Assembly: GCA_905178155.1 (NCBI GenBank)
Contig: CAJINV010000009.1
Coordinates: forward strand, 248,001-312,000
Source: Amoebophrya sp. A120
Taxonomy: Eukaryota > Protista > Dinoflagellata
Direction: 5' to 3'
Length of the DNA stretch: 64,000 nt
Below the pieces are notes generated by a model, which saw only the letters and a program-made list of their open reading frames with translations, was not told where the DNA came from and made no database searches. The position numbers and the translations under genes were made by a program. Position 1 is the stretch's first letter; each line of letters begins with the position of its first letter. Positions 1,838 through 29,058 of this stretch are shown one piece after another.

Positions 1838-4800
1838 ATGCTCTTCGCGCTTCTCGCCTCTGAGTGCTGGAAGGACACCTGGGGTCCGCATAATTTTGCT
1901 CGCTGTTGCTATGTGTTGAAGCGTGGATCTCAAACTCCCTACTCTGTGACGTTTCCTAGTTTGTCATGCTTGTTGCAGTGTTTGTGTTTCAATATCAAGC
2001 AGTTCGAGAGCAGTTTCTGGCTCACCTTGGTAGCTATTACAGTACCGAAGAAGCTTGCGCCATATTGTGTTTCAATATCAATTTCATGTTCATCAGACCT
2101 GCATATGATAATAAATTATCAGCCGTTGGAGAGCACCTGCACCATGGACAAAAATACTGTGAGAAGGAAGGAGTTTGATAATTTTCACCTTTAGTTTACC
2201 CTGGACCAGAGCGTGGCGAGTCAAATCGGGTGTTGGGACCACCTGGGCGATGATGCCGATGCCATCGATATCCTGTTCAAAAACGTCCCCACCCTATCGT
2301 CAAGTTGGGAAATCTGCAAGACAAACCAGCAAGCGTTGGGCGTTGCGCATGACAAGTTCTTTGGCCTCGTAGTGTAATCCTGTTTGGAAAGTTCAGCAGC
2401 GCCACAGATCTAGCACATCATGGCGATTGGAGCATGACAAATTTTCGCAGTACGACTAGAAAAAGGCTCTCCCGGGGCTCCGCATGAGAAACATTTTGAG
2501 CATGCAGATTTGCATTACAGGGGGGGGCGTTTTATTTACATAGGATAATCGACAAGTTCTACAACCGATGCTGTTTGAACCACCCAGTTGACGCCAACGA
2601 GAAGGCCTCGTCGGACGAACAGTTGATTCTGTTAGAAGATCCGCGAGGTGCTGAAGAAAATGATGGCGACGAAGCGAAGAATATTCACAATGCAGATTTA
2701 CCGGGAGATCGCGAGCAGCAGGCTGGAAGTGGAACTAGAAGCACGGCAGAGAAAAATAAAGTGCGAGAAACGCCGGGATTGTCCATAGAGCTGCGAGACG
2801 TGGTAACGTACCCGCTGGTCCTGTCCCGGCAAGAGACGTTGGCTTTGCTTCTCGCCGACCCCGACCAAGCAACTTGTGGCTGTCGGGCGCAGGATGCCTG
2901 GAGCTACTACGACGAGGCGACTGGCGAAGAAGATGCTGCCGCCGGCGCCTTCGGGATATTGCAAGACTTACGGGGTGAGAAGCGAAATCCCATTCCGCCA
3001 GAGGAGGATCACGAGGATCGAAGCCCTTCGGGTTCGCAGCTGGCCCGTCCGGCCGTTCAAGACGACCGGTTTTTCTGCAAACTGCATCGCCGACTGTCGA
3101 TGACTGAGGGAATTCCCTCCGAGATGGTCTTATGGGGAGGAACTCTGTAGACTTTTTAGTTTTTTCTGCCTGCGCAACAACATCTGAGCTGTATCAATAT
3201 TGCAGTTGCAGTCGCACTCGCACCTCGGTTAACTTACATACTTATAAGCATACGGCCTATCTATGTAGTCCTAGTCGCTGCAACATTCGTTGATCTCTAT
3301 CTCCAATGGCGATGGCCGCAGGAGCTCTGTACTTGTGATGTGCCTTCAGATAGATACATACGTGTACGAAACGGTACTAGTTGCAGGATTCAGTACAGAG
3401 TTTTTCACTGGAAAATTACCGGGAACTTTTCGAGGAGATTAGCATTGCAGAAAAAGCCGACTGTCCCTTCGGTTTCCTCGCCCTGATTCTCGCAATCGCC
3501 CAAACGAGAGCGTTTTACTTCAAAAATCCCCTGGACTCCCCGGCTTTTGTCTATGCCGAGAACGCCCTTTTCGTTTTGCTCATGAAAGTCAAGTTTTTGT
3601 ACAACGGGACTGGCAGGAAAACAAAAAAGAAGAAGAAGAAGTCGACGCCACCCTCGTCACCCAAAGGGGGGCCGCAAAAGGCCGTCGATAATACACTTCA
3701 CCGACGAGGAGTACCAGATGGGCAAATTTTTCTGAAGCCGCTGCTTGAATCGGGATGGGACTTCTTCCACTTCATCGACCTGATGCGGCAGCACTACATC
3801 CAAAACATCGGCATTCAGCCAGGTTATCTGGATTGGGAATGCATGGACGTGGACGTCCACCGTGAGGAATTCATGTTCCAGAACTTCGCCGCCTCGAACC
3901 AGGAGATGATGATGAGCCTGCACGCGAACAGAGATATCAACGCCGACAAAGCAACTGCTAATAATCCGGAAGAAGCAGAAGGGGACGACGGGATATCAGC
4001 GGGGAAAAGAGAATTTAGAAGTACTACACCTCCAAAAACAGTAGTACCTGCAAGTAGTGTACAACAAGTACTAGAAGCTGCCGCGACATCAACTGCTTTC
4101 CGTTCCGCACGAGGAGAAACCACGACCGCGGGAGCAGCTGCTACGGACGGAGCCACATCGCAAAAATCCTCAACTCTGCCTGTCAGCTTGGAAAAGACCT
4201 TTCTTTTGCCTCCGCAGCAGGATGTTTTCTTCGTTCGAAACCAACTGAGTTTTTTGTTGCGGGAGGTCGCCGGTGGCGTACTGAAAAATGGAGTTCTCGT
4301 GAGGACAGCAGGTGAGGCTGGAGCTGCTGTAGATGCTGTAGACGAGGAAAACACTTCAAGTGTCTTCAAGCTCTCTCTACTTTCAACTTCCAGCCTATAT
4401 GACGCAGTGCAGACTGTCACCGAGCCGCCACGCAGCCTGTGGAACATTTGGAAAGACTTCACACACATATCCCCGGAACAGGTACCACATCGCGGTTTAG
4501 AATGGGGAAAGCGAATGTTCGACCTGAAGAACGAGAAAAACGTGCGAAAAAACTACAACAAATTGCCGAAAAGCGGCGGAGAACAGCTGCAGGTCTCCAT
4601 TCTAACTAGTTTAGTCGCGGAGCAGCAAAAGACCGAGGGCATGCTCGTCAGAAAGGAAGCAGGTGGCGAGGAGCAACGGGCGACACAGCGCGTCGAGTCT
4701 TCAAGAGATGAACATCAAGAAGTTGCTGCACAAAGTGCAACTAGAACACGATCGGAGCTGCAGCACGAAGCAGAACAGAACCAGCCTAAGGCATGCTATT

Positions 4801-7800
4801 TCATTCACGCGTATGTGATGTTTCAGATGTTTCAGAACCTCGAGGCTACAGCGGACGTCGGGCTAAACGCGTTGGCCATGTTTCACCTTGGTGAGAACTA
4901 CCTAACGGAGCAACTTCTGTTCACAAAAACAACGGCGCATTTGCTCTCGCTAAAACACGCGAAAAATGACCAAGACCTACAAGCAGGAGAAGAAACCGAA
5001 ACCGAAAGTAAGTCGGTGTTTCAGTCCCGTCCCAATGCTCTGGTCGTGGAATTGCGGAAAGGGGTGGCAGTGACATTACATAGTTCACCCTCTACTTCTG
5101 ATTCTGAAGACGATAGTGAAGACTCTGCTGCTGCTGTTGGGTCGCCACTGCTCCATCTGGAGGCTGTTGGTGACACCTCTGTGCTGGCACCGTTGGAAGA
5201 TATTTTGTCGGATGGCACGAGGACACGAAAAGCTGCAACCAGTGCGAGTAGATCCCTGCGCCTGCGCGGGTTTCCGGTATCCTGTGTAAAAACGTCCCCA
5301 CCCCATAGTCAAGATGGGGATTTTGCAACACAAACCTAGGAGTTTTGGGAGTCGCGTATGACAAGTTGCACTCCGTAGTGTAGTGCAGGTTAGCAAGTGC
5401 AGCCGCATCACAGATCCATCTGCTCATCCTGTTCTCAGCATCACAAATTCCAAAACACGATTGGAAATGTCTACCATGGGTATGCGCGTCGCAACTGTCT
5501 TTGTCATTGCAAATCTGCATGACAACTCTTTTCACCCCCTCCCCGGGGGGAATATAAATTCGGGCGCACTGACAAAAAGAGGCGGAACACAGCGAGGAGA
5601 GTTGCCTCGCTGTCGTTACCGACCCAAGAAAGATCCGTATCGTAGACGTACGCACACTGTGCAAAAGACCCGGCAGCTTTTTTTTTCGGCTGTCCCCCAC
5701 TTATTAGATTGTCGGCAAAAGTTTAGGGATAGCGTTACTCCATTGCCGCCTTCGCGATATTTTTTTTAGCGGACCCCGCACGTACGATATCCCTGATGCG
5801 TTTCCCGCTTGGCATTAAACATCCCTGACTCAAACACATATACACCCCTCGGTATGGCACACCTCATCTGCCTAGTCGCCCCTAGGCAGGTGCAGGGATT
5901 TTCTGTGTGGGCTTTTTGTGCTTAATTATTCCAACAGGGGCTGAGTCTTTTTTTTCTGCCTTGCCAGCAGAGTTGTACATGTGGGGGGGAATAGACGGAA
6001 GTGGCGCGAGATCTTGGTGAAGGAGCAGGCGACAAGAGCGGAAATTGTACAAATCAAAAAAAAATATGTAAAGATGGCGCGCACGCGCTCTGCTTAACTG
6101 TGTGAAAGGTGTCGGCCCTGTTTGACCTGCTGCGGCAGGCAGGTGAATTCGTAGAACTGCTTCACATGTTAAGTAACGTCCACTGGCCTCCTAAAATAGT
6201 GATGAATTTATTTGCGAAAAAACCCTCCTGCTATTCCTCCCACAGCACAGCACGTCCGCCGCGGCTTCCGGCTATAGACGTTAGCTATGGCAGAGTTTGC
6301 CGAGTCGCAAAAATATTGCGAGTTGCAAAATATTTTGCGTTGCAAAGTAGTTGGGCGATGAAAGTTGGGAGCTGGGCGATGGGAGTTGGAAGTGGGCGCC
6401 GGGAGTTGGAAGCTGAGCGATGGGGGTGGTGGCGAGTTGGGTGATGGGATTTGGGCGGTGGGCGGGGAGCGATTTCGCAAATCGCGAAAGTTTTGGAAAG
6501 TTTGAAAATTGCGAGAAAAGTTTCGGCGTGGGCGATTTTCCCCCCCGTCGCAAAGTTTTAACTCACACCGCTCAGCAATAGGAGTTATATCTTGGGGATT
6601 TTCTATGCCTATGCGTGTGTCCGGTCCGAGCTCGAAACAAGGGCTCAGGGGTGGCCCCCCTGTAAGCATGCGGGTTTAGGGTTTACATTTGTATGGACCA
6701 ATGCGGCACATCCATCGACTTTCCTGGCAGTGTCGACCTGCTGTACACGGCGCAACCCCCGCGAATCACGAGCGGGGTGCGCATCTTTCGCAGCCGCCGC
6801 GCGTGAGGCTAACTATCGGGCTTCGGCAAAAGCGCACTCAGTCATGATCTTCTACTTGCCGGCCATCTTCTTGCCGCCGCCCCTGCCGCTAACTTTCGGA
6901 TACCACTCCGGCTTCCAAGCACGGCGTGGACCTGATGTTATCTCGATGTCCACCCGCTGGCGCGGCTGCCCCCGTGGATGTGGTGCAAGACCTTCCCATG
7001 TTTTGCAACACGCACGTGGCGGCAGAAGCATCAGCGCATAAAGATGTCAAGATGATAGAAGGTCCGCACCAGCGGACCAGCACGGGTAACAGCCGCCCCG
7101 CGCAACGGATGGATCGTGGGTTCAGCGGTCCCGTCCCCCCGTTTTTGTTTATCTCTAGTTTTTTAGAAATTCTACTATCTTCGAGCACAGACATCTTATG
7201 AATTCCGCTGGAGGCATCGGCGGTAGCTGCACCAATCGCCCGGCGTATTTTGAAAAACAAAAGTCCCACGGCAGTATGGGTCATAACTTGTTCGATTCAG
7301 GGCGCGCGGCTACTAAATGCCACCGGTGGGGTTCTAGATGTAGCGCCGTTTCGTCATGGGCTCGATATTCGACGGGAGCGAGAAAGTGAGGAGCTGGCTG
7401 GTCGCGGCGCACTTGGCACGAGTATTTCCGTGACATGATGGCCGGGACGGTCGTTGCTGATTCCGCTCGAGATTTTTCAACATTGAAGTTGCGAAAACTC
7501 TTTTGCATGACCTTCGCGTAGTACCACCGAGATACGAACCGTCATAGGCTTGCGAATTCTTTTTCAAAAAAACTTTTGCTACAGTTTCGCGCGGCGGCTT
7601 CCCGTGTGTAGGTTTATTCTCGACCATATCACCTCCCCGCTATTCGTCCGACAGCATAGCACGTCCGCCGCGGCTTCCGGCTGTAGACGTTAACTATATC
7701 GTGGGGATTTTCTATGCGTGTGTCCGGTCCGAGCTCGAAACAAGGGTTCAGGGGTGACCCCCCGGTAGGCATGCGGGTTTAGGGTTTACATTTGTATGGA

Positions 7801-10377
7801 CCAATGCGGCACATCCATCGACTTTCCTGACAGTGTCGACCTGCTGTGCACGGCGTAACCCCCGCGAATCACGAGCGGAGTGCGCACATCCGAATCCCGA
7901 ATCCGAAAAACAGTGTAGGGCTTTAGGGTTTTGAATATTTTGATTTTGTATCTCCCACTGCTGCATGAACCTGCTGCAAGAACTTGTCATGCAAAACAAC
8001 CTTCGGGTTGTTCCCGCGCTTCAGGAGTAGTCCTGTTGCGTGAGGGCGGCAGAAGATGAAAGATGTTGTTGATTTAGGGGGTTGAAAATGTTTGTACATG
8101 TGTGATGCAAAAGACAAAGAAATTTCGCGCGTGGGAGCGCATTATTAAGCACAACGGGCGGGTACCGTTCCCGCCGTCACACAATCATGGAAAATTGAAA
8201 ATTGAAAAAAACAGCGTGGGGCCCAATGAAAAAAAAAAATCTGCATGACAACTGTGGAGTGGCCGGGAGATGATGGTGATGGCACTTTGGTGTCCGCCTG
8301 AGCCACCCGCCCTGCGTCTCAAGCCATCTGCGGCCATGGGACAATGGGGGGGCAAAGTGTTTCGCATTTTGTTTAGCATGACAACTCTGGAGTGGGGACG
8401 TTTTTCCTCAGGATATCCTTTGCCAGATATTCTACGGAAGCTGCTGTACACCTCGATCAATATCAACGGCATTCTCGCTATGGAAGCGCCAGGATTGAAA
8501 TCGTGAAAGTTGAAATAGTTTCTTGTGATGCGTAAAATGCAACCCACAAAATGCCTGTCTTGCAGAGTAGGCAAAGGAGGCAGATTGTAAGCCTGTTGAG
8601 GGGTAGAAGTAGAGCTGCTAAAGTAGCATGACAAAAGGCGTCTTCCTTACTGAAACAGCATTACAAACAGGATCTCGGTTCTACCCAAATTTGTCATGCG
8701 CCACTTGAAAACTAGGCGCCAACTGGTATCCGTTTTTTGCATTACAAATTATTTCAACTTTGTCGATTTCAATCCTGACACTCCCATACTCGCGCAACTT
8801 TCCCAGTGCCGGCGGGTCTGGGTGAGCGACGGGGGGCGGAAGGAACCCGGGTACAGCAAGCCGAGCAACCATTTGGTGCAGCAGGCGCGCCCACCAAGGT
8901 ACTTCCGCATGCAGGTGTTTCCGCACCGCGAGCTCGCTTCCAGTTACATCCGGTACAAAAAAGAGCCGTTTTGCAACATGGATCCCTTTCGGGAGATTCT
9001 GCAAACCGTTTCCGCGGACGAGCCGCTGCGGATTTCGGAGGGCGGCGCGCACTTGGGCGACTGCGCGCTCCTGGCCGCGAGCCTACTGCCCACCGCCCGC
9101 ATCACGGCGATCGAACCGCTGCCGGACGCGTCCTTTCTGTTGCAGAATTCCGTGCTTTTGAACGAGCGGCTGGACTTTCCGAATCGCTTGCACGTGGTGA
9201 AGGCGGCCTTGGACGACGGCACGGTGCGGAAGCTGCAGCTCACCCACTTGCCCGGCCGCTCGGCGTCCGCATCGGCAAACGACGGGAATTATGTCTGGAA
9301 TTGCAACAAAAACACGCCGGAGCACCTGTGCCGGAGGCACGACGTCGAGGTCTTGAAACTGGATGAGGTGATTGATTTCGCGCACGTGGTGAAGCTTTCT
9401 ATCCAGGGCAACGAGATCGCGGCCTTGCGGGGGAGCAGCGAGCTCATGCAGCGGTTTGACGTCTGCAGCTGGTTTTTCTACTTCGGCAAGGTGAACTTGG
9501 GCACCAGGGTGGTGGTGAAAGTGGATACGACTACATCTGGTAATTATTCGCAGTTGACCACGTCGGCGGAATCGTTGAAAGCAGACGGTAATGCAGCGGA
9601 GAAGGAGGACGGCCTTGCGGAGGAGAGACAAAAGCGGTTGAATCTGACGGTGCACTATCCTTTCCCAACCTGGTTCATGTCCTCGCGGAGCGATGTTGAA
9701 CTACACCAAGAAAGTAGTACAAACTTCGAAGAAGCACCTGCCAAGGAGTCGTTCGTACAATTGCGAGATTGTGCCACCACGGCGCAAAACGTCAAGAACA
9801 AGGCAGAGAACCCCGAGAACACCTCCCAGGAAAACGCAAGCTACGCGCGCTGCGTCTCGGTAACCGCTTCGGAGGAACTGTGGAGGTTGTTGGCAACGAT
9901 GGACCTGTACTACGTCAATTACGCGAAGAAGTTGGTTACCGCGAGGCGGATCGAGAACGCGTTTGACTTGCACTTGACCATGCAGGCGAACTTGAACCTC
10001 CTCGACGTGGACGAGGACGCGTTTTGGAAGGAGTACCTGATTATCAAATGTAAAAATGTCTGGGTCTGGAAACTTGTAATGCTGGGTGGCGTCTCATGAT
10101 GAGGCTACAAATGCTGGCTCAGCATGACAAGTTTCTGAGCTCCTAGGTGTTGCCTATTCTGCATGACAAACTGCGCTTCTGCATCACAGAAGCGCGTAGC
10201 TCTTGGGTAACGTGCGTGACAGATTTAAGAGTCATGCCAGACAAGCATGACAAACATGAATTCTTCCAGACCCAGACATTTTTACACTTGATACTGATCG
10301 CCACACAGAAGACCGGCCTGAACAAGCGATGCGTCAAGTTCGTCACCCATGTGTGGAGGCAGTTTCGCTTGATGTAA
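1838..10377 (+). CDS. Large (~1332 aa) probably secreted protein with N-terminal CW...CC motifs and a C-terminal FkbM-family SAM methyltransferase domain; predicted exons 1838-1912, 2195-2268, 2553-3126, 3387-5277, 8421-8478, 8794-10041, 10299-10377
   Basis: FkbM motifs in ORF 8696-10099: ISEGGAHLG, AIEP, HVVKAAL, LKLDEV, VVKLSIQGNE. Exon lengths sum to 3999 nt with no internal stop when two GT-AG introns (1913-2194, 3127-3386) and four TIR elements plus one TSD each are removed. Exact junctions within the TSDs are ambiguous. Confidence 0.7.
2269..2547. mobile_element. Introner/MITE-like non-canonical intron, family B (279 bp), TSD ATCGA
   Basis: Left end TATCCTGTTCAAAAACGTCCCC; right end GGGGCGTTTTATTTACATAGGATA (inverted). 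ATCGA at 2264-2268 and 2548-2552. Removal gives in-frame ...DAIDKFYNRCC... Confidence 0.9.
6224..6783 (+). repeat. LTR-like ~255-bp direct repeat, copy 1 (interrupted by element 6286-6580)
   Basis: Aligns colinearly with 7632-7886 (e.g. CACGTCCGCCGCGGCTTCCGG, GTCCGAGCTCGAAACAAGGG, GGACCAATGCGGCACATCCATCGACTTTCCTG). Confidence 0.9.
6286..6580. mobile_element. TAT...ATA element (295 bp) inserted in repeat copy 1; internal AGTTGGG-like tandem repeats
   Basis: Ends TATGGCAGAG / CTCAGCAATA (8/10 inverted). Absent from repeat copy 2, which reads GACGTTAACTATATC. Copy 1 has element plus 5 extra nt (TTAGC...GGAGT). Confidence 0.8.
7632..7886 (+). repeat. LTR-like direct repeat, copy 2 (empty site); contains GGGTTTAGGGTTT
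   Basis: Direct alignment to 6224-6285 plus 6586-6783. Confidence 0.9.
8479..8788. mobile_element. Introner/non-canonical intron, family C (310 bp), TSD CTCGC
   Basis: ~55-bp TIR: TATGGAAGCGCCAGGATTGAAATCGTGAAAGTTGAAATA / TATTTCAACTTTGTCGATTTCAATCCTGACACTCCCATA. CTCGC at 8474-8478 and 8789-8793. In-frame NGILA|QLSQCRR after removal. Confidence 0.92.
10042..10293. mobile_element. Introner/non-canonical intron, family A (252 bp), TSD CTGAT
   Basis: 30-bp near-perfect TIR TATCAAATGTAAAAATGTCTGGGTCTGGAA / TTCCAGACCCAGACATTTTTACACTTGATA. CTGAT at 10037-10041 and 10294-10298. Removal gives KEYLIATQKTGL...FRLM*. Confidence 0.95.
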
Positions 10378-11365
10378 AAACCGGATTCCACGACCACGCT
10401 GGTGGGGAGGTGGGGTACTAAGTAGGAAGATGAAGCTCCGCTTGGCTCTGTGGGCTGCTCTAGAAGCATCACAGAGTCAGCTGCGACCGGGTAGTGCAAG
10501 CTGGCGTTCAAAAACTAGAACATATGACAGTGTTGAGCAAGAATCCTTGGTGGCCAATGGACTAGTCGGCCCCTGCACGTAAAGGTGCATGCACACATAG
10601 TGAAACAGTGACATACAGTAAGGGAAGGCGTTCCAGTCTTGTAAAGTAGCTTCTTGCAAGAGGAGCAAGAGCATCGCAGTCGCTGTTTGCAGCTATCCGT
10701 CTACTGCTCGTTTAAAACGTGTCACAAGGACGCGAAAGCGTTTCGAGCAGAAAGGTTCGTCAGAAACGGAGGCACGAGGACAGCAGTTTTGCTTTTGCAG
10801 TCTAAATGGAGTGTGGGAAGTTTTTGAAAAAGAGGCGTGTATATTCGGGTACAGAACGAGGATCCGGACGTAAGGAATTGATCCATCGTATTCCTTTTCG
10901 CATGAATTTGGTGCTGCTGTACAATCAGAAGGTCCCGCTTTTCGCACCACCGCATTGTCGTCTCATTCGTGTATATCTATCACCCCCGCGCAGATCAGGT
11001 GTCGTTTGGACATTCTTAACGAAATTGTCGAATAGATTCGTCAAGTTGCAGCGCTGCGTCGCACCACGAGGCAATCACGAAGTAAGTACTTTAATGCAGT
11101 ACGCACTCGCACAGGCACTACATTAATACTCACAGCTAGAACATGATCACTTTCACACTGAGTAACTAGGTCGTGAGTTGTTGTCTGAATGCTTGTTTTC
11201 TCGGCAGATACAGCTATGAGCATGAAGTCAAATGACTAAGACATTGACTTCTTTCTTCGTGTAGTTTCGTTCCAATGGTCGCCTCATCAAAGGCCTTAGT
11301 ACCAGCAGAATATTTGATCGCACAACTGCAAAGTTGAGAATCAACCTACCAAACAGAATACCAGA

Positions 11366-14300
11366 ATGCCGCTGGCCGGGTCCTATTTTGATTTTGATCA
11401 CAATGTGATCCCCACCACAAGCCGGGCGAAGGAGCAGACAGCTTCATGCTGTGGCAGTGAAAGCGCAACTGCAACGAGCATACAAGAGGAAGGGGGGTGG
11501 TACAGTGTATTGTCTTCTCCTTTGCCGTCCTGTAGTACCACCAGCACCGTAGACGGAAGTAAGAAGTCCGATGGAGCTGCAAATGATGACACCACGACCG
11601 ACGAAGAAGTCTTGGAGGTCACCGTGACGCGGGAAGAGCTGGCTACGCTGCAATTGCGAATTGTGCACGAAGGTGTTGCCTTGGATCCCAAGCAGGAATG
11701 GGACGATGGTCAGGGAAAGGCGGGGTGCTTCGAGAACCGCTCTTGCGTAGTAGTTCTCCGCGGGTTTAATATTCGAAATAGCGATTTTCTGTTCGACCCT
11801 GCTGGTCCCGAAACACTCGACCCTCTCGAGCACGAAGATGAAAAATCACCTGACCCGCATCAACTACGACTGCGGAGGAAGAATCTGCTGCTCCGAGCCG
11901 TGTACGATACCGAGTTTCAAAACTCTCTTGTTGACAACCCGAGTGGACTCCGAGTTGGCGACGAAATTCTGGGTTACAGGCGACTGTCTGCGGCCGTGAC
12001 AGACGGCGAAAGTGAAAATGAGAAAATCGCAGGCACCAGCGGCGTGCAGAAGCCCAGCGTCGAATGGCACACTGTCGCCGCGGACTTTCGCAACTTAGAC
12101 TTTCTTGGTATGGGCCCCAGTTGTATGTTTCTGAAACAAAACACAAACAAGTCTGGTGAAAATAGACCACGTAGAAGTAGCGAACCTGAGCGAGAGGAAA
12201 GACCACTATTCTTATCGGATGGCCAGACTGGAAGCGATGAGGACGTGGAGTTTTCATGGTCCACATCGGCCACAAAGGCCTGCTTCCTGAACACGTATTT
12301 TGTCAAGCGGATGCTAAGCCTTTGTGATGATGAACGCGTAAGTGGAATAACGAATTTGCCGTCCTCCTCGTGCGGACGTGCTGTCGTATTGAAAGTACGT
12401 CGTGCAGCCGGTGGGTTTGCCTGCGTTTCTTCTGTGGCTGAACAGAACAAGAGGCGTGAGGCGGAGGAGAAACACGACGCGCGCTTTCTGCGAGGTTTAC
12501 GGGAGAAAGTGCTACCAGGAATGAACGAGCCGCTGAACCAAAGCAGTAGAGCTAGAGTCCCACAGTTTCAGCGGCGGGGTAATAAAACGCAACCTTGGCC
12601 GCGGCGGGGGAGGCAAGTTCATCAACATAAACGAAATTTGCAAAAAAGTGGAGTACTGATTGAGCCAGAAAGTAGTCGCGGCCCGCTGCCAGGACCACAA
12701 TCAGCACGAGGCATCCGATCATGTAGCTCGTCCTTCCTATCAAACGCAAAAGTTCTCAAAGATGTTGGCAACTTGATTGATTACGCCACTCAAAGAAGGT
12801 ACTTTTTCACGTTTTTCGGCAGTCGCAGTCACGGTGTACACTTTCGCGACTCTGACGTTGATGTGTGCCTCTACCTGCACGACATCAGATCAGATAAGCA
12901 GGCGCGGCACTACCTGCACACTCTCGGACTAGGCTTGACGTACCTGCAGGAAGCACATGTCGACTGGCTCATCGCTCGCATCCGGAAGCGGCGGGCGTTA
13001 GGCAGAGTGAGAAAGCAAAGGCTGAAGGGAAGAGACAAGCGGAAGCGAGGACACAAGGACACACCGCAAGAATTGCCGGAGCGTGTGGAAAGAAGCAGGG
13101 CTACTGGTGACGATGAGGAAAGCAAAGGCTTTAGTACTACCGGCAGAAAGGGGGAAAGTGAAGAAAATCTTAGCGCGCAGGCAGCAGAGTGGCGGTCCCG
13201 ATCACGGTTTTCACCCACTGAAGAGAATTCAAGAGATTTTCCCTCCACCGCTGCACTGCCAGACAGAACAAGTCTGAAGTATGCGAAAGACGTGCACTCC
13301 GTGGATCTTGAGCCTGTGGAAGCGAAAGGCACACTGGAATTTGTGTTCAAAGGCTTCCAGGTGGATCTAACGTACGCGCTGGACCCCGTAGTGCGGATGG
13401 GAATGCGGGAACAACCGCCTGCGACCTTGATAGAAAAGAGCACTGGAGGCGCAGCGATTGCCGGAGGAGGCCGTGTCGAGGTGAAAGTGGAAAAGAAACA
13501 CAAAAGGGAGACATCGGCCGGAGAAGTACAACCGTCAGCATCACGGTGGAACCAGAAAAGCCCTTGTTTCCGTTCCTGGTTACAAGGCGCTCATTTTCTA
13601 GACAGCTTGCTTCAAAATCCCGGCTTTGGTGCGCTTGTCGTTGCCGTCGAAGAGAAAAACGGGATGAGAGTAGGTGACCAAGAAAGTGCTATTGGTAAAA
13701 ATGATGACATCGTGCAAGAGCAATCGGAAGGGAAGTTCCCAGATCCAGTTTCATGCAAATCGACCCTACTGACACGAGCACGACAGGAGAACAAGCTCCG
13801 GATGGTTTTCCAAAAGATCCTGCACTTCGTCGCGGCCGATAACAAGTGTGTGGATGGGTCGCGGGCTTTTGGGAAAAGGTTTGACAGTGCACAGGCTGAC
13901 TTATTGGCGAACGCTCCCACAAGTACAACTCCCTCGTCCTCCTGCAACATCCGTTATGTTGCGACCGCGGTGCTGCACTGGGCGAAAATCATGAAGTTGA
14001 AAAAGGAGCACTCAAATACGGAGAAACGACTGAAGTCAATCCATCTAGTCGCACTCTTTCTTTGCTTCGTTCGCGGAGGACTTCTTGTTTCTCGACAGCA
14101 TTATATCACCTCCAAGCGGCAAGAACCGCAACGCTGGAACTCCTCGCTTCTCCTGGGCCGCTTTTTTCACTGGGTCGCCACTTTCCCTTTCGAGAGCTAC
14201 AGTCTACGGCCTTTGGCACAGGAAAACAGCAGAGTAGTTGTCAAGCGGCCACGTTGGGCAAGGTTTACGAGGACCGGTCCTTCGGCGAACGAAACTACAG

Positions 14301-16948
14301 AACTAGGCCAAAAGTCTCCAAGCATCAATTTATGGGGAGAGCAGCCGGCGATTCGTCGCTGTTTCGCGGCGGAATCACAATACGCCAATCTGTGGTCTTC
14401 ATCTCCACCTCCATCGTCGGTGTGTGGGAATAGCGAAGCTTCTCTTCCCGCCGTTTTGGGAAATTCCATTCTGAAAGAGGTTGCAAAAGAAGTAAAGACG
14501 CCAGGACCACCTGGCTCTACGCTTCCTTCGCTTTATTCAGTAATCTCTTCGAAGCCCGCGCAGGCGCACTACCACTACTTTGGATGGGAGTACAACCCAG
14601 AAGATCCAGATTTGTGTTTGCCGTTTCAGGAGCGAGAGAAAGTTTGGTCCGCTTCGCCTTCTTCCGCATCTACTATTTTCGGAAATCCGCAGATGATCAA
14701 GAAACCAACCACAACTGCTTACCCGATCCATCGACTGCTGGTGGCCCCGATAGAGGGAGATAGAAATGAGACAACTCCGGCGTCACTCCATCCAGAAATC
14801 AAGCGCAAAATCGTACTCCGGAGCCCGGCGTCGGGCGCTTACGTGACACCAGCCGAGGAGGAGCAGAGGTGGCAACCCCGCGACTTGATCCACATCAGAA
14901 GAAGTCCGCAACTTGCAACTACTCCCGAGGAACATGAAATATCGGCCGTAGCAGGAGAGATGAAGACCTCCGAGCCTGAGCCGGATCAACACGAAGACTG
15001 GCGGTACCGGCAAAACATCTGGCAGTACTTCGACAGCGTTTTGGAGGAGGAGTACAAGGAAACGAGCCGTGCCGAATTTGAGGACAAACAGATGGAGCAG
15101 TACGGACAGAAAAAACCCGATCTAACTTTTCATTTGCGCAAAACCAAAATGTGTGGGCGGAACTGCGACAGCGATAATTCCGATAGTGATCATGCGGACC
15201 ACGAACAATCTCCCACGAGCGACTATTTAGTACCGCAAGGTCGTGACGAAGATTCTTCTACTTTTGATTCCGAAGAAGATGCCGCCAGGAGTATTTGGTC
15301 TTCCGAAGATGCTGAGGAATACGAATACTCACACGACGTCAAGAATACCAACGTAAATCCAAACTGCTATGTGTGTCGAACTTTGCGTTGGTCCGACCTG
15401 CCGATCGCCATTGGCTTGCCACAAGGTCGTGCTAGCTCGCGGCGTGAACACCTAGGCGGAATGTTTGGTGCGGAATTATCTCAAGCGTCGGAACTACGTG
15501 ACTCACAGTCACAACAGCCGCAAAGTTGCGCTACGGTCGTTGACCGGTACGAAAATGCTTCGGCTTTGGAGACCGAAGCGTTGATCTTCCAGGACCAGGG
15601 AGTGTCGAATTGTGCGTGCTATCAGTCCCTGAACGAAGTGGAAACGTGGATACTGGATGAAAAGTTCCTGAAAGATTTAAGGAGAAAGGCCTACGCGACT
15701 TTTCTGCTGTGGGACGAGGGACAGAAGGAGAAGTGTCGGATGCGCAGCACGACGAGGGATGTCTGCCCTGTGAAAAATGGCGGAGGAAGAGGTTCTTTGC
15801 TAAAGCACAACAGTACAACTGAGGTACCAGCTATGAATCATGGGTCACTCGCGGCCTTGTTTGAGAAACTAGAAAACTGGGAAAAATCGCCGGTCCCTGG
15901 GTTTTCTTGCGGTCTAAGTGCCGGAAGACGAAGAACCATGCTTGACTCCACCCGAATGTTTAACCGGATAAAAAAAGAGGACGAGAACGGGCAGCCGCTG
16001 TGGAACACAATGTACAGCCAAGACAAGGAGCAATTGCTCAGCGTTCACCACACGTTCATCAAGCACGGGTTTGGCAACGAGGATGGCAAGCCCGGCGACG
16101 CTCAGCCTACAGCTGTGGACGATCTCCGAAGAGGAGAACAGCAAGGGAAGAACAAACGCTCGTCGAACGAGAAAAGCAAAACTCAAGCACGACGACACCG
16201 CCACCGACGACGGAAGCATTGTGTGATGCGGAAGTTGAAGTTTCGTTGTGGAAAGAGGTTGGCAAGAAGAATACGGAGAAAGAAGAAGCGCGATGAGGAA
16301 GAAAGGCCATTTCCGTACTGTGATCAGCTGCTGCGATTGTCTTTGGATGTCGTAGACGATTTTTACGAAACGTATTTCGATCATGATGTGACAAATAGAA
16401 ACAAAAAGCGAAGTAAGGCGAGGAGCAAGACGATTTCATCGATGAACCACCCGATGACAAGTAAAGCAGTTGGAGGAAGTAACAGTGGAACAACTGAAAC
16501 TCCTTTGTCGCGAACAAGCAGCTCAACTTCGACGGCATTGCGAGGCAGCACAAGGAACAGACCAAGTAACTGGATCAAAATCAAAAGATTTCTCCGCCTG
16601 GCGCAGCTGGATCTGCTGCGAGAGTTGGCCGGGGACAATGACGAGAAGCCAGCAAGTCCACGTGGCTCGTCTTCTTCAACAAACGTGAACGAATTCTGCG
16701 ACGACATGACGTATCAAAAGATGAAAGAAGTAGATAGCGCAGCATTCAAAAAAGAGGTCGTGAGGGCGAAGCCGATGAAGGCGAAAACAATACGACAGAA
16801 AGTTGAGGAGCGGATGAATCTCGGCCGTGCACTCCGCCACAGCAGCGCCACCGCTCAGGAAGAGCATGGAATTTGTCAGTCTAGCGCGCTCTTGAAATTT
16901 GCCAAGCGTGGCAAGGAACCCGACCCAGAGCCGAGTCGGGAGAAGTGA
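11366..16948 (+). CDS. Intronless 1860-aa Pol-beta-superfamily nucleotidyltransferase (non-canonical poly(A) polymerase/TUTase-like) with long low-complexity insertions
   Basis: FFGSRSHGVHFRDSDVDVCL (hGS...DhDh), third catalytic Asp in FQVDLTY, helical-domain segments VLHWAK, LKSIHLVALFLCFV and LLGRFFHWVATFPF. Confidence 0.75.
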   Translation: MPLAGSYFDFDHNVIPTTSRAKEQTASCCGSESATATSIQEEGGWYSVLSSPLPSCSTTSTVDGSKKSDGAANDDTTTDEEVLEVTVTREELATLQLRIVHEGVALDPKQEWDDGQGKAGCFENRSCVVVLRGFNIRNSDFLFDPAGPETLDPLEHEDEKSPDPHQLRLRRKNLLLRAVYDTEFQNSLVDNPSGLRVGDEILGYRRLSAAVTDGESENEKIAGTSGVQKPSVEWHTVAADFRNLDFLGMGPSCMFLKQNTNKSGENRPRRSSEPEREERPLFLSDGQTGSDEDVEFSWSTSATKACFLNTYFVKRMLSLCDDERVSGITNLPSSSCGRAVVLKVRRAAGGFACVSSVAEQNKRREAEEKHDARFLRGLREKVLPGMNEPLNQSSRARVPQFQRRGNKTQPWPRRGRQVHQHKRNLQKSGVLIEPESSRGPLPGPQSARGIRSCSSSFLSNAKVLKDVGNLIDYATQRRYFFTFFGSRSHGVHFRDSDVDVCLYLHDIRSDKQARHYLHTLGLGLTYLQEAHVDWLIARIRKRRALGRVRKQRLKGRDKRKRGHKDTPQELPERVERSRATGDDEESKGFSTTGRKGESEENLSAQAAEWRSRSRFSPTEENSRDFPSTAALPDRTSLKYAKDVHSVDLEPVEAKGTLEFVFKGFQVDLTYALDPVVRMGMREQPPATLIEKSTGGAAIAGGGRVEVKVEKKHKRETSAGEVQPSASRWNQKSPCFRSWLQGAHFLDSLLQNPGFGALVVAVEEKNGMRVGDQESAIGKNDDIVQEQSEGKFPDPVSCKSTLLTRARQENKLRMVFQKILHFVAADNKCVDGSRAFGKRFDSAQADLLANAPTSTTPSSSCNIRYVATAVLHWAKIMKLKKEHSNTEKRLKSIHLVALFLCFVRGGLLVSRQHYITSKRQEPQRWNSSLLLGRFFHWVATFPFESYSLRPLAQENSRVVVKRPRWARFTRTGPSANETTELGQKSPSINLWGEQPAIRRCFAAESQYANLWSSSPPPSSVCGNSEASLPAVLGNSILKEVAKEVKTPGPPGSTLPSLYSVISSKPAQAHYHYFGWEYNPEDPDLCLPFQEREKVWSASPSSASTIFGNPQMIKKPTTTAYPIHRLLVAPIEGDRNETTPASLHPEIKRKIVLRSPASGAYVTPAEEEQRWQPRDLIHIRRSPQLATTPEEHEISAVAGEMKTSEPEPDQHEDWRYRQNIWQYFDSVLEEEYKETSRAEFEDKQMEQYGQKKPDLTFHLRKTKMCGRNCDSDNSDSDHADHEQSPTSDYLVPQGRDEDSSTFDSEEDAARSIWSSEDAEEYEYSHDVKNTNVNPNCYVCRTLRWSDLPIAIGLPQGRASSRREHLGGMFGAELSQASELRDSQSQQPQSCATVVDRYENASALETEALIFQDQGVSNCACYQSLNEVETWILDEKFLKDLRRKAYATFLLWDEGQKEKCRMRSTTRDVCPVKNGGGRGSLLKHNSTTEVPAMNHGSLAALFEKLENWEKSPVPGFSCGLSAGRRRTMLDSTRMFNRIKKEDENGQPLWNTMYSQDKEQLLSVHHTFIKHGFGNEDGKPGDAQPTAVDDLRRGEQQGKNKRSSNEKSKTQARRHRHRRRKHCVMRKLKFRCGKRLARRIRRKKKRDEEERPFPYCDQLLRLSLDVVDDFYETYFDHDVTNRNKKRSKARSKTISSMNHPMTSKAVGGSNSGTTETPLSRTSSSTSTALRGSTRNRPSNWIKIKRFLRLAQLDLLRELAGDNDEKPASPRGSSSSTNVNEFCDDMTYQKMKEVDSAAFKKEVVRAKPMKAKTIRQKVEERMNLGRALRHSSATAQEEHGICQSSALLKFAKRGKEPDPEPSREK

Positions 16949-18156
16949 AGCAGGGTAACTGCTTTCATCAAATAATATACATAGAAGTCAGTGATGTGCC
17001 TAACGATCCCCATGATAATGATCGCGATGTTTTTTAACGTCAGCGTAGATATTGATGTGTGAACCTTCGTGATCGCGAATGCGGAAAATATGCCCAGATA
17101 GGAATGATCCTCAATCTTGGATACTTTTTTACGAAACTTTGACGCAATGTTTTTACAGATGGAATTTCTCTCTCACAAGAAAAAAGATTTTGTTTTTGAA
17201 CTGTACCGATGTAGTAACTCGGACGAGACCTCCATGTCTCTTGTTAAACCGCTGATGACCAAGACAAACCGGAGGTACTCGGACTTTGTGTCATCGAGTT
17301 TGATATCCAGCATAGTGATGCATCGTGCTGGCCGCTAATCGGCCGCGATTCTATCGCAGAAGCATCGTCTTCGTCGAAAATTATGAGAGGACTAGATTGA
17401 TAAAGCGCTGACAGTTTTAGTTTCATCATCGGAATCGGAAATCATTGTCATTCTTGAATCGTGTCCAGCGATTAGAAGTTCTTGTGCTTGGTGGAGTTTT
17501 TCGAGCATTCTACACTTTCGCACAGCAGAGTTGTACGTAGACTTCGAGTAAAATGAAATAAGTTCCACACTTCACTTGTCGTCTTCGACATACGTGATGG
17601 TTTCGAAACAAGTGAGTCTCTGCTAGTAGGAGTCTTTTATCACCTAGAAATAAACACACACGGTCATTCGAAACCGGAAGAAAACTAGCTATAATAAATG
17701 AGGCCCCGATTTTCCTCCTACCTTGCAGCGACACCGAGGGCCGTGAGACGACCAAGGCAGTAGAAAATCATGCTAGCGAGAGTAGACGATGAGCATGGGG
17801 AGGAAGAGAAAAGTCGCCGAAACTTGTTTGGTAGACACGCTAGCCGTGCATCTCCGCCGATAGCAGCTCATGATTGCAGAACCGTGAAGCCCCCAACGCA
17901 CGCCGCGGGAGTGGTTTCCTGTTCTTCTGAAGAAAGCCGATAAAGAGTGCCAGCACGTCGATCTATTTTTGCAAGCTGAAGCAGGAGCGCTAAGCCAACG
18001 AGACGACACGACTACACAGCAGTCCTGCTACAGACGACCCCACGGCCACGTTTTCAACCACCGACCGACCGGGAGCAATACTACAACGGCGACATAGTTT
18101 ACTTCGTGAGCATTTCCCTACGACCTCCCACGACGACAATCGCCGAAATACTTAAA

Positions 18157-19386
18157 ATGATGGGTGGCAGCGGCGGCGGCAGAGCAGCCTCAGCTGGTGC
18201 TGCGAGTAGTTCTTCCTCAAAATCTTCCTTTTGGACGGGCCGCTGGTCCAACATAAACCCCTCGCACCTCACCCCGGAGTCCTACAAACGCGACGACTGG
18301 GGCTGGCTGTACTACACGCCAATTCTGTTCCTGCAACTGATCTTTTTTTTCGCCATTTTCCGGTCCCGAACAATAAGGTTTCAGCAGTTGCTGCTCTGCC
18401 TGTGCGGCTTTTATTGGTGCGTGATAGTCTACTATGTGCAGTACTTCTCACCGACAAGCGGAAAGGTGCTGTTTTGCGACGTCACGTGGACCAGCTGCAG
18501 CTACTGCCTCCACCAGAGAATCAGCTACCTGCCCGAGTAATTTTCCACTTTTTCGATGTTTCGTATATATGTTTGCGATCATGCTCGTGATACAAATGCA
18601 TCTGCATAGTTGTACACCATTACAAAACAACACTATATTTCTTGATGTGGTCGTCGTATCACGTTGCAGTCGCGGCGATTGGATTAGGACCATTGGTTCC
18701 TCGCTCCTTCTTCTAGAATTGCTGTTGCAGCATGCGTATAAATTTGGCTAGATTCGATTCGTATTCCACAACAGGTTTTTTGGGCTTCTGGACCAGCGAC
18801 AATCTAGCCTGAACCGTTCCATCGCCGACACGAATCTGCTGTATTTCCTAGCGCATGTGTTGTACCCCATTCTCCAGAAACTTCCCCTCATTGGTTACTA
18901 CATGACGCACCTCGGGTTCTTCGTCAGCCTGGCCATCGCGGTGGGGTGTGGATATTTGACGCTGATGACCTACTATCAAATGTAAAAATGTCTGGGTCTG
19001 GAAGAATGCAATTTGTCATGCTAAATCTGAAGCATGCAAAAATCTGTGTTGCATGATTACCAAAAGTCGTCCAGTTTTGACCAAGTCGGGAAGCAGTTTC
19101 TCATGCAGGATAGGCATGGGAAAGATCGCACAGAATCTGTCATGCTATGTCCTGCATTCCAGACCTCATGGGTCATGAAATTCTGCATGACAAATCGCGC
19201 ATTCTTCCAGACTCAGACATTTTTACATTTGATACCTACCGCGAAGTGCACGACGTTTGCGTAATCAATTTGATTCTGTGCGTCATCAACTTTGGGCTGT
19301 GCCGGTCCATGTGGCTGCACTTCTACAGGTTGATTATCGACAGAAATAAGAACAAGGTGGTTTCCATGGTCAACAAAACAGAATGA
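18157..19386 (+). CDS. Multi-pass membrane protein of unknown function (~241 aa); exons 18157-18536, 18775-18973, 19240-19386
   Basis: GT-AG intron 18537-18774 plus family-A introner; the joined frame is open (726 nt) with several hydrophobic segments. Confidence 0.75.
18974..19234. mobile_element. Introner/non-canonical intron, family A (261 bp), TSD CCTAC
   Basis: TIR TATCAAATGTAAAAATGTCTGGGTCTGGAAGAATGC / GCATTCTTCCAGACTCAGACATTTTTACATTTGATA. CCTAC at 18969-18973 and 19235-19239. Removal gives LTLMTY|REVHDV in frame. Confidence 0.95.
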
Positions 19387-19916
19387 TAGAAGCATCTGTC
19401 GCGGTTTTGGTTTATTTCACCAGCTCCCGCTGCACATTTTTTCGCAATATGTGAGCTGTATCTATTCAACGCGAATAGAAGCGCACTCGGCTGGGCTTGT
19501 TCTTGTTCGAATGATATCCAATCCTAAAGCGCTGCTGCTGCTCTTTTCGTTTTGCGCCAGGTAGGAAGCCGGGTGGTGCGGCTTCATTCTGGAAAATAAA
19601 TACATAGAATTACGCTCCTGCTCCTCGTTGTAAGTCGTTTGACATTTTTGACAACTGGGAAGAAAAGTGTGGCTGAGACGCGTTTGCACGAGCGGGAGTG
19701 ATTTGGTAGCAGTGACCAGCGCAGTGTGCGAAAGCAAAAAGTGCGCGTGGTTGATGTGAGAAATGTGGGTCGCTAAGGTTCGTCTCATGGATGTCGTCCC
19801 TTGTGCAAGACTTGAGCGAAATACAAGTACCGAGCGCTTCTATACTAAGTACAGGAGAAGCGCACGGCACTTGCTAAGCAGGTCAACACAGTATTTCATT
19901 CGTTTTTTTTCGAAAA

Positions 19917-25977: not shown

Positions 25978-27105
25978 CGAAAAGAACGACCTACCACTAC
26001 AAGAATTTGCAGCCAGTTTGATTCCAAGAAATATGTAAACCAACAAACTTTGACATTCTTCAAAATTAACTAAAATTGATGTCGCACTCGGCAATTCGCA
26101 CTCAGCATACCTATACCAAGGAAAGTGTAAGCGAGGACGAAAGCCGCAATGTAAAATACTGCCACTGGCACTGCAGCTGTTTCTGTTTGTGTTTTGTAAG
26201 CCATCCAGTTCATCGCAATGTATAATCCCAGACTTTCAAAAATTTGTAGTGCACCCTCCTGTACTGATGCCACACCTGTACAAACAAGAGCAAGACAAAA
26301 ACTTGACGCCTGAAGATTGTCCTATTGTCGTTCAAAACTCAACTCATTGTATCTCTCTTGAGATGACAGAGACCTCTCACTTATGTAAAAAATATAGACC
26401 ACGAGCACGTCAGTATGAATCTACGAAGCCTGCGTTTGTGCCAAGTAAAGCTATGTATCAACTGCTAGCAATCTGAATGTCAATGTACCGAAATCAACTA
26501 TGCTCTTTCTATGTATCTGCTGTTCTTTGTAAACCTAAACCGTCGTCGCCGGCGATACTTGTACCACTATACAGCTACTCCTACTTCTACTTGTAAAAAA
26601 AACTATTCTCTGCATCCGCTCTTTCTAGATCCATCGAAAAGAGTGCCGACTGGTGGCGCTCGTATGCTTTCATGCAAACCCTTTGCCTATTCGTATTCTT
26701 ATTCAAATAGTGTTCGCTTCGATGCACACTCTCGTGGCTTTTTGGTATCATGGTTTTCCTTTCGGTTCCTACTCCGATCAGCAGATCAAAAAATCTTCAA
26801 AAATTCCTCGGATCCGTCATCAATATTAATTTGTCCGAAACTACAAGTTGCTTGCTTTTTCTGGAATTTATTTTGCACTTGTACTTCGGTTTGCTTTTTT
26901 CCTTTGCGTTGTGACCCGCCACAGTCTCGGATCTCGTCTGGGTAACTTTATTTTTGTTACTCGAGTACTTTCTCGAGCCCCACTGGCACTCATACACTTT
27001 CCAGCGAGACGTCGCGCCTTCGTCCTTCTTGTAGTTTAGTAGCTCTAGATAGATGTAGCATTGCTAGAGCTCGTACTCGTTCAGCACACACCCCCGAGGC
27101 CCATC

Positions 27106-29058
27106 ATGATGGATCCGCCTCCCGAGCAAAATAGAGTTCCAGGTGGGACACACATGCAATCAGTAGAAGCCTTCGTTAATCCCTCGCCACTGCAGCGTGA
27201 CCACCAACCCAGTCGCAGTTCTTCTTCCTCAAAGTACAAGGAAACCAAACGCGTCGATGCGAGCGACTTTGGGAAGTCGGTCGCGAGCGGGGCGGTATCC
27301 GGGTTCGCAGTAAAGACACTTACCGCGCCACTGAGTCGAATGACGATCTTGCTCCAAGTAACGCCGCCCACGGCAGCGGGTGTTCCTCGTGGTGCAGCTA
27401 CGTGTGCGACCGGAAAACAACTTCCAACCTCTCCGATCTTGACCGGAACAAATCCCAGTTCCTCTTCGACCAGCGGTCTGAACAAGCCAACGAGCGTGAA
27501 ACTGGGACCTGCCATATCAAAATGGAAAATCCCCCCACCCCATATCAAAACGAAATTTCTGATGCTGGATTTGCGTACACAAATCAGGTTTGTCTTGCAG
27601 TAGGGGACTGCAGGCCGATATCATGCCACTGCGCAGAGGTTTTGGCCTAGGCGCTTAGCATGGGGAACGCCTATGCTGTAGGACCAACAGCATTACAAAC
27701 CGCCTGCATAATGGGGCGGAGCGGATGCCGTTGCTTTCTTGCAAGACAGACACGATTTGTGGTCACGAATCAGCATCGCAAATTTTTTGAGGCGTTCCTT
27801 TTCGATATGGGGAGGGGGGATTTTTCCTTACAATATGCCACATCAGCAGGCACGACCATAGTACAACAGAAGCCTGGCTCGACCACAAACTTCGTCCCCA
27901 CGGGGTCCCTGGACTTGCTGCGGAAAGTTGTGCAGCAGGAGGGTGTCACTTCCTTCTGGAAGGGAAATTGGACCAGTATTCTGCACAAAGGACTACTGAC
28001 AGGCTTAAACTACGGATTGTTCGAGACAATCAAGAACAGCCTGCGTCCGATTTGGAGATCCGATACAGACCCCGGGTTTCTTGCACGAACGGCGGCAGGG
28101 TACGAAGAGTTAGAGTCCTCCCTCTGGAAATGTTCAATGGTTGTTAAAGGTTTGCATTTGCAATTTGAAAATATGACTTTTTCGATACCGCTTGATTTCG
28201 TCCAGAAACTTCTATAATCCAATGTGCCGCGTCTTCAAGCGCAAGTGCAACCTTTAGTATACATTCCGGAAGAACTAGTTGTACTACGGTAGGAAAAATT
28301 GTCACACAAACAAAAGGTTTCTCGCGAGCTCGGTTTCCTTGACCATCGCCTACCCCTTCGACCTTATGCGCACCCGGTTGGCCTGCGAGCAGAGAAACTA
28401 CCACCTCTCGGTCCCCACTGGTCAGCAGTGGCTGGGCGTTTACCGGGATGTGGTCAAGACGGAAGGACCACGTGCGCTGGTTCGCGGGCTCCCGTGTACG
28501 CTGTTGTGTCAGGGACTCAATGTCGGGCTCAATTTCGGCATTTACGAGACGCTCAACGTCTATCTTTTGCGGTACAGAATTGTAGCACTGTGCCTGCGTG
28601 TGTTGATCTTTCAGTACTCTTTTTGGAACAGTACCGAGCAAGCAAAGTCTTTTCTTTTTGCGAAAATTTGGGATGAACATTTTATCGCGACATACGATGC
28701 ATTTTATCGCGACATACGATGGTCAGTCTCCATAAATTGAAATTCTACCACCTTCTACAGCGAGCAGCATACCCGAACTACATTCCTAGAAACCATGGGT
28801 TGTGGGGCCGTCGCAGGGATCACTGCCTCAACTCTGGTGCAGCCTTTGGACCTGATCCGCCGGCGCCAGCAGATGAGCAACGAGAGCTGGACGGTGCTCC
28901 AGTGGGGTCGGCATGTTGTGCAGAGCCACGGACTGCGGGGGCTGTACCGGGGCTTGGTTCCTGAACTGCTGAAAGTCGCGCCAGCAGTGGGGCTCAACTT
29001 TTATATTTACGAATGGATGCGACAAGAAGTGTTTCAGACCAAAGTACATCCAAGATGA
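27106..29058 (+). CDS. Mitochondrial carrier (SLC25) family protein (~406 aa); exons 27106-27514, 27841-28099, 28317-28571, 28761-29058
   Basis: Three carrier repeats with signature-like motifs APLSRMTILLQ, YPFDLMRTRL and QPLDLIRRRQ, plus EGVTSFWKGN, EGPRALVRG and HGLRGLYRG. One introner and two GT-AG introns (28100-28316, 28572-28760). Confidence 0.92.
27515..27835. mobile_element. Introner/non-canonical intron, family D (321 bp), TSD TGCCA, ~70-bp imperfect inverted arms
   Basis: TATCAAAATGGAAAATCCCCCCACCCCATATC / GATATGGGGAGGGGGGATTTTTCCTTACAATA. TGCCA at 27510-27514 and 27836-27840. Removal gives KLGPA|TSAGTT in frame. Confidence 0.92.
28678..28720 (+). repeat. 21-bp tandem duplication (CATTTTATCGCGACATACGAT x2, ~22-bp period) in an intron
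   Basis: Seen directly in sequence. Confidence 0.85.

Follow-up and report, generated by a model that had tools for sequence, protein, structure and literature searches.

Two introners of one family lie in opposite orientations within two genes of the same strand in Amoebophrya sp. A120, and both are missing from transcript-like contigs. They were found in a window of 64,000 nucleotides (nt) of contig CAJINV010000009.1 (positions 248,001 to 312,000 of the forward strand; positions below are those of the window) and are called here A1 and A2, members of family A, within the genes G1 and G2 respectively. In a survey of the family in a second assembly both orientations are common and the two arms of the element are alike, and the signal for removal must therefore be encoded in the element ends; we consider it very probable that the family is removed from RNA by an end-encoded process that is blind to orientation.

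Two relatives with opposed interiors

Both elements (Table 1) begin TATCAAATG and finish TTGATA, giving TAT...ATA termini, and are bounded by terminal inverted repeats (TIRs) that are common to the two, 30 nt at 97% in A1 and 36 nt at 97% in A2, with the self-symmetry of A2 reaching some 50 nt inward. Their target-site duplications (TSDs) are perfect, at 5/5 nt each. An original prediction made from the letters of the window had assigned the pair to one family with shared TIRs and opposed interiors, and this was borne out: the coordinates are exact, the paired 24-mers agree at 22/24 positions, and alignment in both orientations favours the reverse. With the TIRs removed, the best local match to the reverse complement scores 40 (1000 dinucleotide shuffles: mean 17.8, standard deviation 2.6, maximum 32), and global scores are 183 reversed and 111 forward. 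The interiors are diverged relatives, partly palindromic, and not exact reverse complements; they also share a forward match of 15 nt (score 30; shuffle maximum 28) because GCATGACAA repeats on both strands. Across 129 family-A copies the orientation call is bimodal, placing A1 (+81) and A2 (-118) in opposite classes, and the classes are clean, with 129/129 copies agreeing with their best match and 7925/8256 pairs in agreement.

With 129 copies of 240-303 nt, TIRs of 30-50 nt and a 5-nt TSD, family A is built like miniature inverted-repeat transposable elements (MITEs). The ends of A1 and A2 carry the inverted-repeat motif TAT + 7 nt + AAA, their direct repeats agree at 5/5 positions, and they belong to a repeated, non-canonical family with RNA joints; judged by this structure, both count as non-autonomous TIR transposons and belong to the introner type of Amoebophrya A120.

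Both copies are absent from transcript-like contigs

Removal was followed in four sets of RNA-like contigs (X1-X4), complementary DNA (cDNA) from two samples (S1/S2, P1) of one study, and in DNA-like contigs (X5) from another sample (S3, P2). The RNA-like contigs skip the element and one TSD, and the DNA-like contigs retain both. X1 has the joints 10036>10294 (A1, 257 nt), 18967>19234 (A2, 266 nt) and 18536>18775 (a GT..AG intron of G2), besides those over two other inserts of G1 (Table 1). In X4 the A1 joint recurs between neighbouring pieces of a single contig, and among the joints listed X2 and X3 have pieces that stop at 10036; the A2 joint is present in X1-X4, with X2, X3 and X4 each holding one contig that carries both G2 joints. 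As the GT..AG intron is lost in the very contigs that skip A2, their strand is fixed and they are marked as cDNA, and the RNA-likeness of X1-X4 fits both this loss and, in X1, empty intergenic bins. X5 covers all 30 bins and has a depth of 0 at either G2 joint; at 42-48x, the X5 unitigs 8760-10066, 10269-18998 and 19207-19600 continue across each of the four junctions and enter the TIRs. The expectation that neither copy stays unspliced was thus upheld, both being absent from RNA-like contigs.

The host genes give a second view of the same junctions. Once the element and one TSD are taken out, the G1 frame (two further inserts also removed) runs for 1093 codons from stop to stop, with 242 for the longest frame on the minus strand, and the G2 frame runs for 300, with 94 on the minus strand. 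P0001, the sole homolog of G2 among 278 candidates, matches all three G2 exons on the plus strand, with 49% identity across both junctions and no gap at that of A2. Both host genes are therefore on the plus strand, as predicted. That both elements need precise removal is well founded for A2, whose retention would cost G2 48 residues, some of them conserved in P0001; the need is weaker for A1, whose retention would replace the last 25 residues of G1 with 18 others. Exon 3 of G1 has a weak FkbM methyltransferase domain (PF05050, E 5e-5), and the hydrophobic G2 protein matches no Pfam family at cut-off.

Raw-read runs X9-X11 cover nothing but ends of elements at other loci, and are uninformative on A1 and A2. 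Each of X9 (18974-19060) and X11 (5278-5320) has more than 100 raw RNA reads in which a single element end lies inside sequence that is foreign on both sides. These reads derive from copies at other loci that are retained in RNA; that in X9 could have just one arm and for that reason be unspliced.

Orientation and host strand across the family

A TIR scan of metagenome_contigs (33/64 parts) returned at least 132 loci (L003-L134) from one other assembly (JACKZZ01 contigs), on which all survey counts rest. The loci are known from DNA alone, from which we infer their splicing, and the longest stretch they share with the window measures 330 nt and consists of element. Among 297 candidate end pairs (TIR match of at least 15/20, TSD not yet required) an exact 5-nt repeat flanks 172, and a 3- or 8-nt repeat one each; the surveyed loci hold 216 distinct TAT...ATA elements with a TSD of 4/5 or 5/5, and 127 of these are family A. 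Two 21-nt TIR matches in viral contigs (L001:1001-1021 and L002:176-196) were set aside as chance: both lie within an AT-rich reading frame and neither is surrounded by an element.

Host strand was called by a codon model trained on 13 open reading frames (ORFs) of the window, which was right for 138/144 held-out 200-nt pieces and wrong, at a margin of 10, for 10/538 held-out. At this margin and with no stop, 74 of the 127 family-A copies could be called, 26 A1-like and 48 A2-like (p 0.014 against 1:1); stricter or otherwise changed filters gave 19:33 (52 copies) and, where ORF length was used, 21:29 (50 copies) and 10:21 (31 copies). Tabulated against host strand, as the original prediction proposed, both orientations are common in family A, and the skew is mild and unstable. 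Other families gave 8:9 (17/21 called), 5:7 (12/20), 4:6 (10/18) and 0:2 (2/5), in a table that leaves out 16/92 copies found in clusters under 4. In eight loci a single open frame runs over copies of both orientations after their removal, with no strand call needed; a Pfam search of the 32 exon pieces of those loci returned one informative match (L042, Choline_transpo) and no consecutive matches across junctions. Removal of the element plus 5 nt is the best of three registers in 90/123 unselected copies, and 67/74 family-A copies have stops in all three frames.

Two further features of the survey were noted. In family A the A2-like orientation prevails about 2:1 among confident calls, with T runs commoner in the A1-like interior and A runs in the A2-like one. 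In 128 strand-called elements, base 1 of the TSD falls at codon position 3/1/2 in 65/38/25 cases (p 6e-5; control 173/179/186 of 538), and, were the cut to follow TSD base 1 or 4, the introns would be of phase 0/1/2 in 51/30/20% of cases. Such proportions resemble the classic phase bias of introns; a preference for palindromic targets is an alternative source of the unevenness.

Splice signals and the symmetry of the ends

None of the six registers of A1 and A2 gives GT..AG, GC..AG or AT..AC, so neither element has the canonical ends of a U2 (GT-AG) or U12 (AT-AC) intron. In the 74 strand-called family-A copies, in any register, GT..AG is available in 4, GC..AG in 1, AT..AC in 1 and G[TCA]..AG in 9. 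Three concealed arrangements were rejected. Reading A2 as a minus-strand GT..AG intron (CT..AC in one register) reflects chance, with G2 on the plus strand and only 2/74 copies alike. A hidden acceptor formed by ATA and a G at TSD base 1 appeared in 33/74 copies against 23.6 expected, and was not repeated in 54 others (14 against 16.8); a hidden G|T donor fares no better, G at TSD base 5 being found in 18-19/74 copies, without excess.

Read in the sense of the transcript, the arm on the donor side and that on the acceptor side do not differ in base profile, and their conservation is inflated by the scan's demand for one exact arm. Family-A copies are self-symmetric over a median of 49 nt, and their last 31 nt share one consensus in both orientations, bar one position. 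Whichever the orientation, this stretch has a T-rich run and roughly 70% pyrimidine at -17..-6, and YTNAY occurs in it in 61/74 copies (19/26 A1-like, 42/48 A2-like; CTRAY in 3/74). The original prediction had argued from the opposed interiors that a strand-specific branch point or polypyrimidine tract could not be the signal, and had regarded this as hard to reconcile with standard U2 recognition. The first part fails: since the TIR supplies the same 3' end whichever way the element lies, orientation independence cannot exclude either feature. Each orientation does carry its own motif-like features, trivially so, and lacks its own GT-AG. For the same reason orientation offers no argument against a standard U2 mechanism; the conflict lies in the missing GT-AG (4/74) and has already been published for this type of element (Farhat et al. 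2021, PMC7789003).

What is genuinely odd is the need for a cut within TSD sequence that is random. One TSD's worth of letters stays behind and, after codon correction, the TSD bases have no consistent bias, so that at least one of the cuts is made within host sequence that is arbitrary; its position is probably set by distance from the TIR. A hint of that distance comes from a 3138-nt element in G1 (Table 1), which has the sole imperfect TSD with RNA. Its joint, 5276>8420, has no shared letters (one X1 contig, flagged 'between: not known') and suggests one cut at 1 nt ahead of the stem and the other at 4 nt beyond it, that is, after TSD base 4.

How the ends may be read

A sequence of events that would account for these observations begins with insertion by a cut-and-paste transposase making 5-nt staggered cuts. 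In the pre-mRNA the mirrored terminal 30-50 nt would pair into a stem, which would position a modified, U1-independent U2-type spliceosome, and the cuts would be measured from the stem base with overhangs adding to 5 nt, as may have happened at the junction just described. Because mirrored ends read alike both ways, removal would likely work in either orientation. In predicted folds the TIRs close into a stem that leaves both TSDs single-stranded (A1 -109.7 kcal/mol, z-score -8.0; A2 -118.9 kcal/mol, z-score -11.7). U2, U4 and U6 (and U5 in A120) have been found together with 83/89 proteins, U1 was not detected, and canonical introns are still spliced (PMC7789003); minor small nuclear RNAs (snRNAs) are reported absent in A25/A120 (PMC7789003). 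Taken whole, catalyst included, this account of stem-positioned spliceosomal removal is our leading one, held tentatively and at somewhat short of an even chance.

Several observations weigh against it, or against the orientation counts beneath it. The retained snRNAs also serve canonical introns and are therefore non-discriminating; the introns of Fritillaria keep dinucleotide preferences where family A shows none, and the inverted-repeat introns of Euglena have been argued to use separate machinery. Selection for pairing in RNA was not detected, with G.U and A.C mismatches at 67:53 (p 0.24) and 78:70 (p 0.57), and the sense strand folds better in just 42/74 copies. Covariation between the arms (3546 against 3476 +/- 14) lies mainly at positions 10 and 14 and could be produced by subfamily kinship. 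Roughly 40% of the acceptor arms have lost the branch-like TTTAC (position 10 T/C). As for orientation, the strand model is wrong on A2's own flank (margin -6.7) and undecided on A1's, the skew has a p of 0.007-0.6 depending on method and one further family stands at 5:0 (5/12 called), so that the interior is perhaps not fully neutral. The RNA status of X1-X4 is itself guessed, and a single study supplied all of these cDNA contigs. Of the symmetric excision signal first proposed, the part that places it in the ends and not the interior survives (26:48 of 74, equal arms), while the part that makes it a hairpin is not demonstrated (G.U against A.C 78:70).

The strongest competitor, which we regard as possible though doubtful, dispenses with the spliceosome altogether: a separate endonuclease and ligase would measure from the base of the TIR stem, make a 5-nt staggered cut, rejoin the exons and likely release a circle, as proposed for Euglena. 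The want of a dinucleotide rule at either side, the indistinguishable donor and acceptor arms and the skipping of a 3.1-kb element with the same ends all suit such an enzyme, and for Euglena both a role of inverted repeats in splicing and a circular product have been reported (PMC12501133; PMC11282704). It calls, however, for a second machinery in a cell whose spliceosome already seems to be without U1, and no signal of pairing selection was found. Should this less favoured route hold, the lineage would possess a second, non-spliceosomal RNA excision system, sequence-blind and convergent with that of Euglena, which would cut 1 nt before and 4 nt after the base of a TAT...ATA stem. Whatever its direction, a transposon of this kind with a 5-nt TSD and a length anywhere between 110 nt and 3.1 kb would become a scar-free intron.

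Alternatively, the hairpin may be incidental and a spliceosome with adapted proteins may read linear motifs in the arms (5' TAT-N5-G-N-AAAA; 3' the complement, a T run and YTNAY). Such motifs are conserved across families, where in 442 element ends position 9 is G in 376 and positions 11-14 are A in 375-428 (411-428 for positions 11-13; TAT was required by the search), and branch-like and T-rich features in both orientations, along with the absent G.U excess, agree with them. Binding by a transposase predicts the same conservation of positions 9 and 11-14, however, and the predicted stem of 30-50 bp would bury the motifs, which makes this reading unlikely.

A strong hairpin footed by direct repeats is also the layout known from template-switch artefacts, and the joints could have arisen where reverse transcriptase jumped between the repeats. 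All of the RNA evidence is cDNA, and in the available portions of PMC7789003 the terms RT-PCR, direct RNA, template switch, artifact and lariat do not occur. Against this, in-frame protein conservation goes on past A2, the stops in 67/74 copies mean that the cell must remove the elements, in four runs it was the joined form that assembled across the junction, and joint 5276>8420 (one contig) has no microhomology; we hold an artefact to be very improbable. Least credible of all is loss of the elements from DNA, by somatic excision or through an empty-site allele in the RNA samples: X5 (S3, P2) and X1-X4 (S1/S2, P1) do come from different samples and contigs omit rare variants, but X5 passes every junction unbroken and at even depth, the exon pieces in RNA-like contigs differ from the window at 0-1 positions, and four inserts are absent beside a GT-AG intron.

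Other elements in the window

Table 1. Elements, host genes and related features of the window.
Feature	Position	Strand	Details
A1, family-A introner, interior class +	10042-10293, 252 nt	+	TIR arms 10042-10071 / 10264-10293; X1, X4 joints
A1 left TSD, CTGAT	10037-10041	+	right copy 10294-10298; one copy's worth remains in transcript
A2, family-A introner, interior opposed to A1	18974-19234, 261 nt	-	TIR arms 18974-19009 / 19199-19234
A2 left TSD, CCTAC	18969-18973	+	right copy 19235-19239
Interior block	10151-10174	+	22/24 against reverse complement of 19093-19116
Introner, other family, 310 nt, TSD CTCGC	8479-8788		in G1; X1 joint 8473>8789
3138-nt element, TAT...ATA TIRs, imperfect TSD TCCGG/TCCTT	5278-8415		in G1; X1 joint 5276>8420
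Introner, 279 nt, TSD ATCGA	2269-2547		same family as left end of 3138-nt element; no RNA joint listed
Introner, 321 nt, TSD TGCCA	27515-27835		within + strand mitochondrial-carrier gene 27049-28211; outside the read-covered stretches
G1	3582-10377	+	exons 3582-5276, 8420-8473, 8789-10036, 10294-10377
G2	18157-19386	+	exons about 18157-18536, 18775-18968, 19235-19386
Canonical GT..AG intron of G2	18537-18774	+	spliced out in same contigs as A2

The 3138-nt element matches the 279-nt family over its first 170 nt or so and contains internal duplications (6609-6783/7712-7886 and 6222-6288/7631-7697) and short TTTAGGG-like runs; a Pfam search of 10 of its frames for a transposase gave 0 matches. 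Part of its interior (5742-6065) is 72% identical over 327 nt to that of a 972-nt family-A element of the second assembly (L031:1501-2472), and by this resemblance cargo is common to different TIR families. The mitochondrial-carrier gene has a PF00153 match on both sides of its 321-nt introner. At 767-1072 a TAT...ATA pair, complementary at 16/20 bases and without a TSD, is possibly a decayed element or chance. An Rfam search of the window gave 0 matches. Among ATG-started ORFs of at least 250 codons, 13/17 lie on the plus strand, including all 11 above 440 codons, which marks a co-oriented gene block.

Comparison with known introners

The introners of Amoebophrya A120 are described with an inverted repeat of TAT + 7 nt + AAA, direct repeats of 3-5 nt (5 bp in the legend of Fig. 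S19) and non-canonical ends, together with more than 60% non-canonical introns, an undetected U1 and a hairpin model (PMC7789003). A1 and A2 share this signature, the direct repeat, the non-canonical ends, the proposed hairpin and the setting in co-oriented genes, and A120 families of 149, 214, 252-260, 278, 305 and 321 nt agree in size with the elements described above (PMC12130899, 22/58 A120 rows), where two A120 families are labelled 'palindromic'. The A1 and A2 TIRs had no match in 14 supplement files of PMC12130899, leaving size and signature as the link to those families. In the available literature we found no report of introner orientation relative to the host gene in Amoebophrya, and literature searches listed no paper given over to orientation or mechanism there: the main text of PMC7789003, as far as available, is without 'strand' and uses 'orientation' for gene order only, and the method of PMC9860276 admitted matches in opposite orientation.

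Introners that work both ways have been reported in Polarella glacialis and cited for Aureococcus anophagefferens (bioRxiv 10.1101/2020.10.14.339549). These are likewise TIR/TSD elements that form introns either way with one orientation favoured; unlike family A, in which G[TCA]..AG is possible in just the 9/74 copies given above, they carry or recruit GT/GC/GA and AG. The TIR-transposon introns of Fritillaria are also without GT-AG (PMC11282704), and in Fritillaria borealis the non-GT/AG TIR introns reportedly need the U2 spliceosome (bioRxiv 10.1101/2025.08.15.670264); there, in contrast, U1 is conserved and AG-AC/AG-AT ends are preferred, whereas family A is without preference and its catalyst putative. 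The nonconventional introns of Euglena resemble family A in that terminal inverted repeats join the ends, a MITE origin is suggested and GT-AG is missing (PMC12501133), and differ in their CAG/CTG signature and circular products, as against TAT/ATA, a 5-nt TSD and repeated families. The class of element and the two-way introner were thus already known; here the two-way habit occurs without any GT-AG, and what is added is the orientation counts, the symmetry of donor and acceptor, the hint of a cut position and the codon-phase bias.

For the removal of non-canonical introns of the Amoebophrya type, whose mechanism PMC7789003 leaves open, this pair and the family counts reduce the choice, in that the interior and the direction of the element are largely dispensable and its two ends interchangeable. 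This would explain how coding sequence can be filled so cheaply, nearly every insertion being spliceable with no need of a pre-existing splice site.

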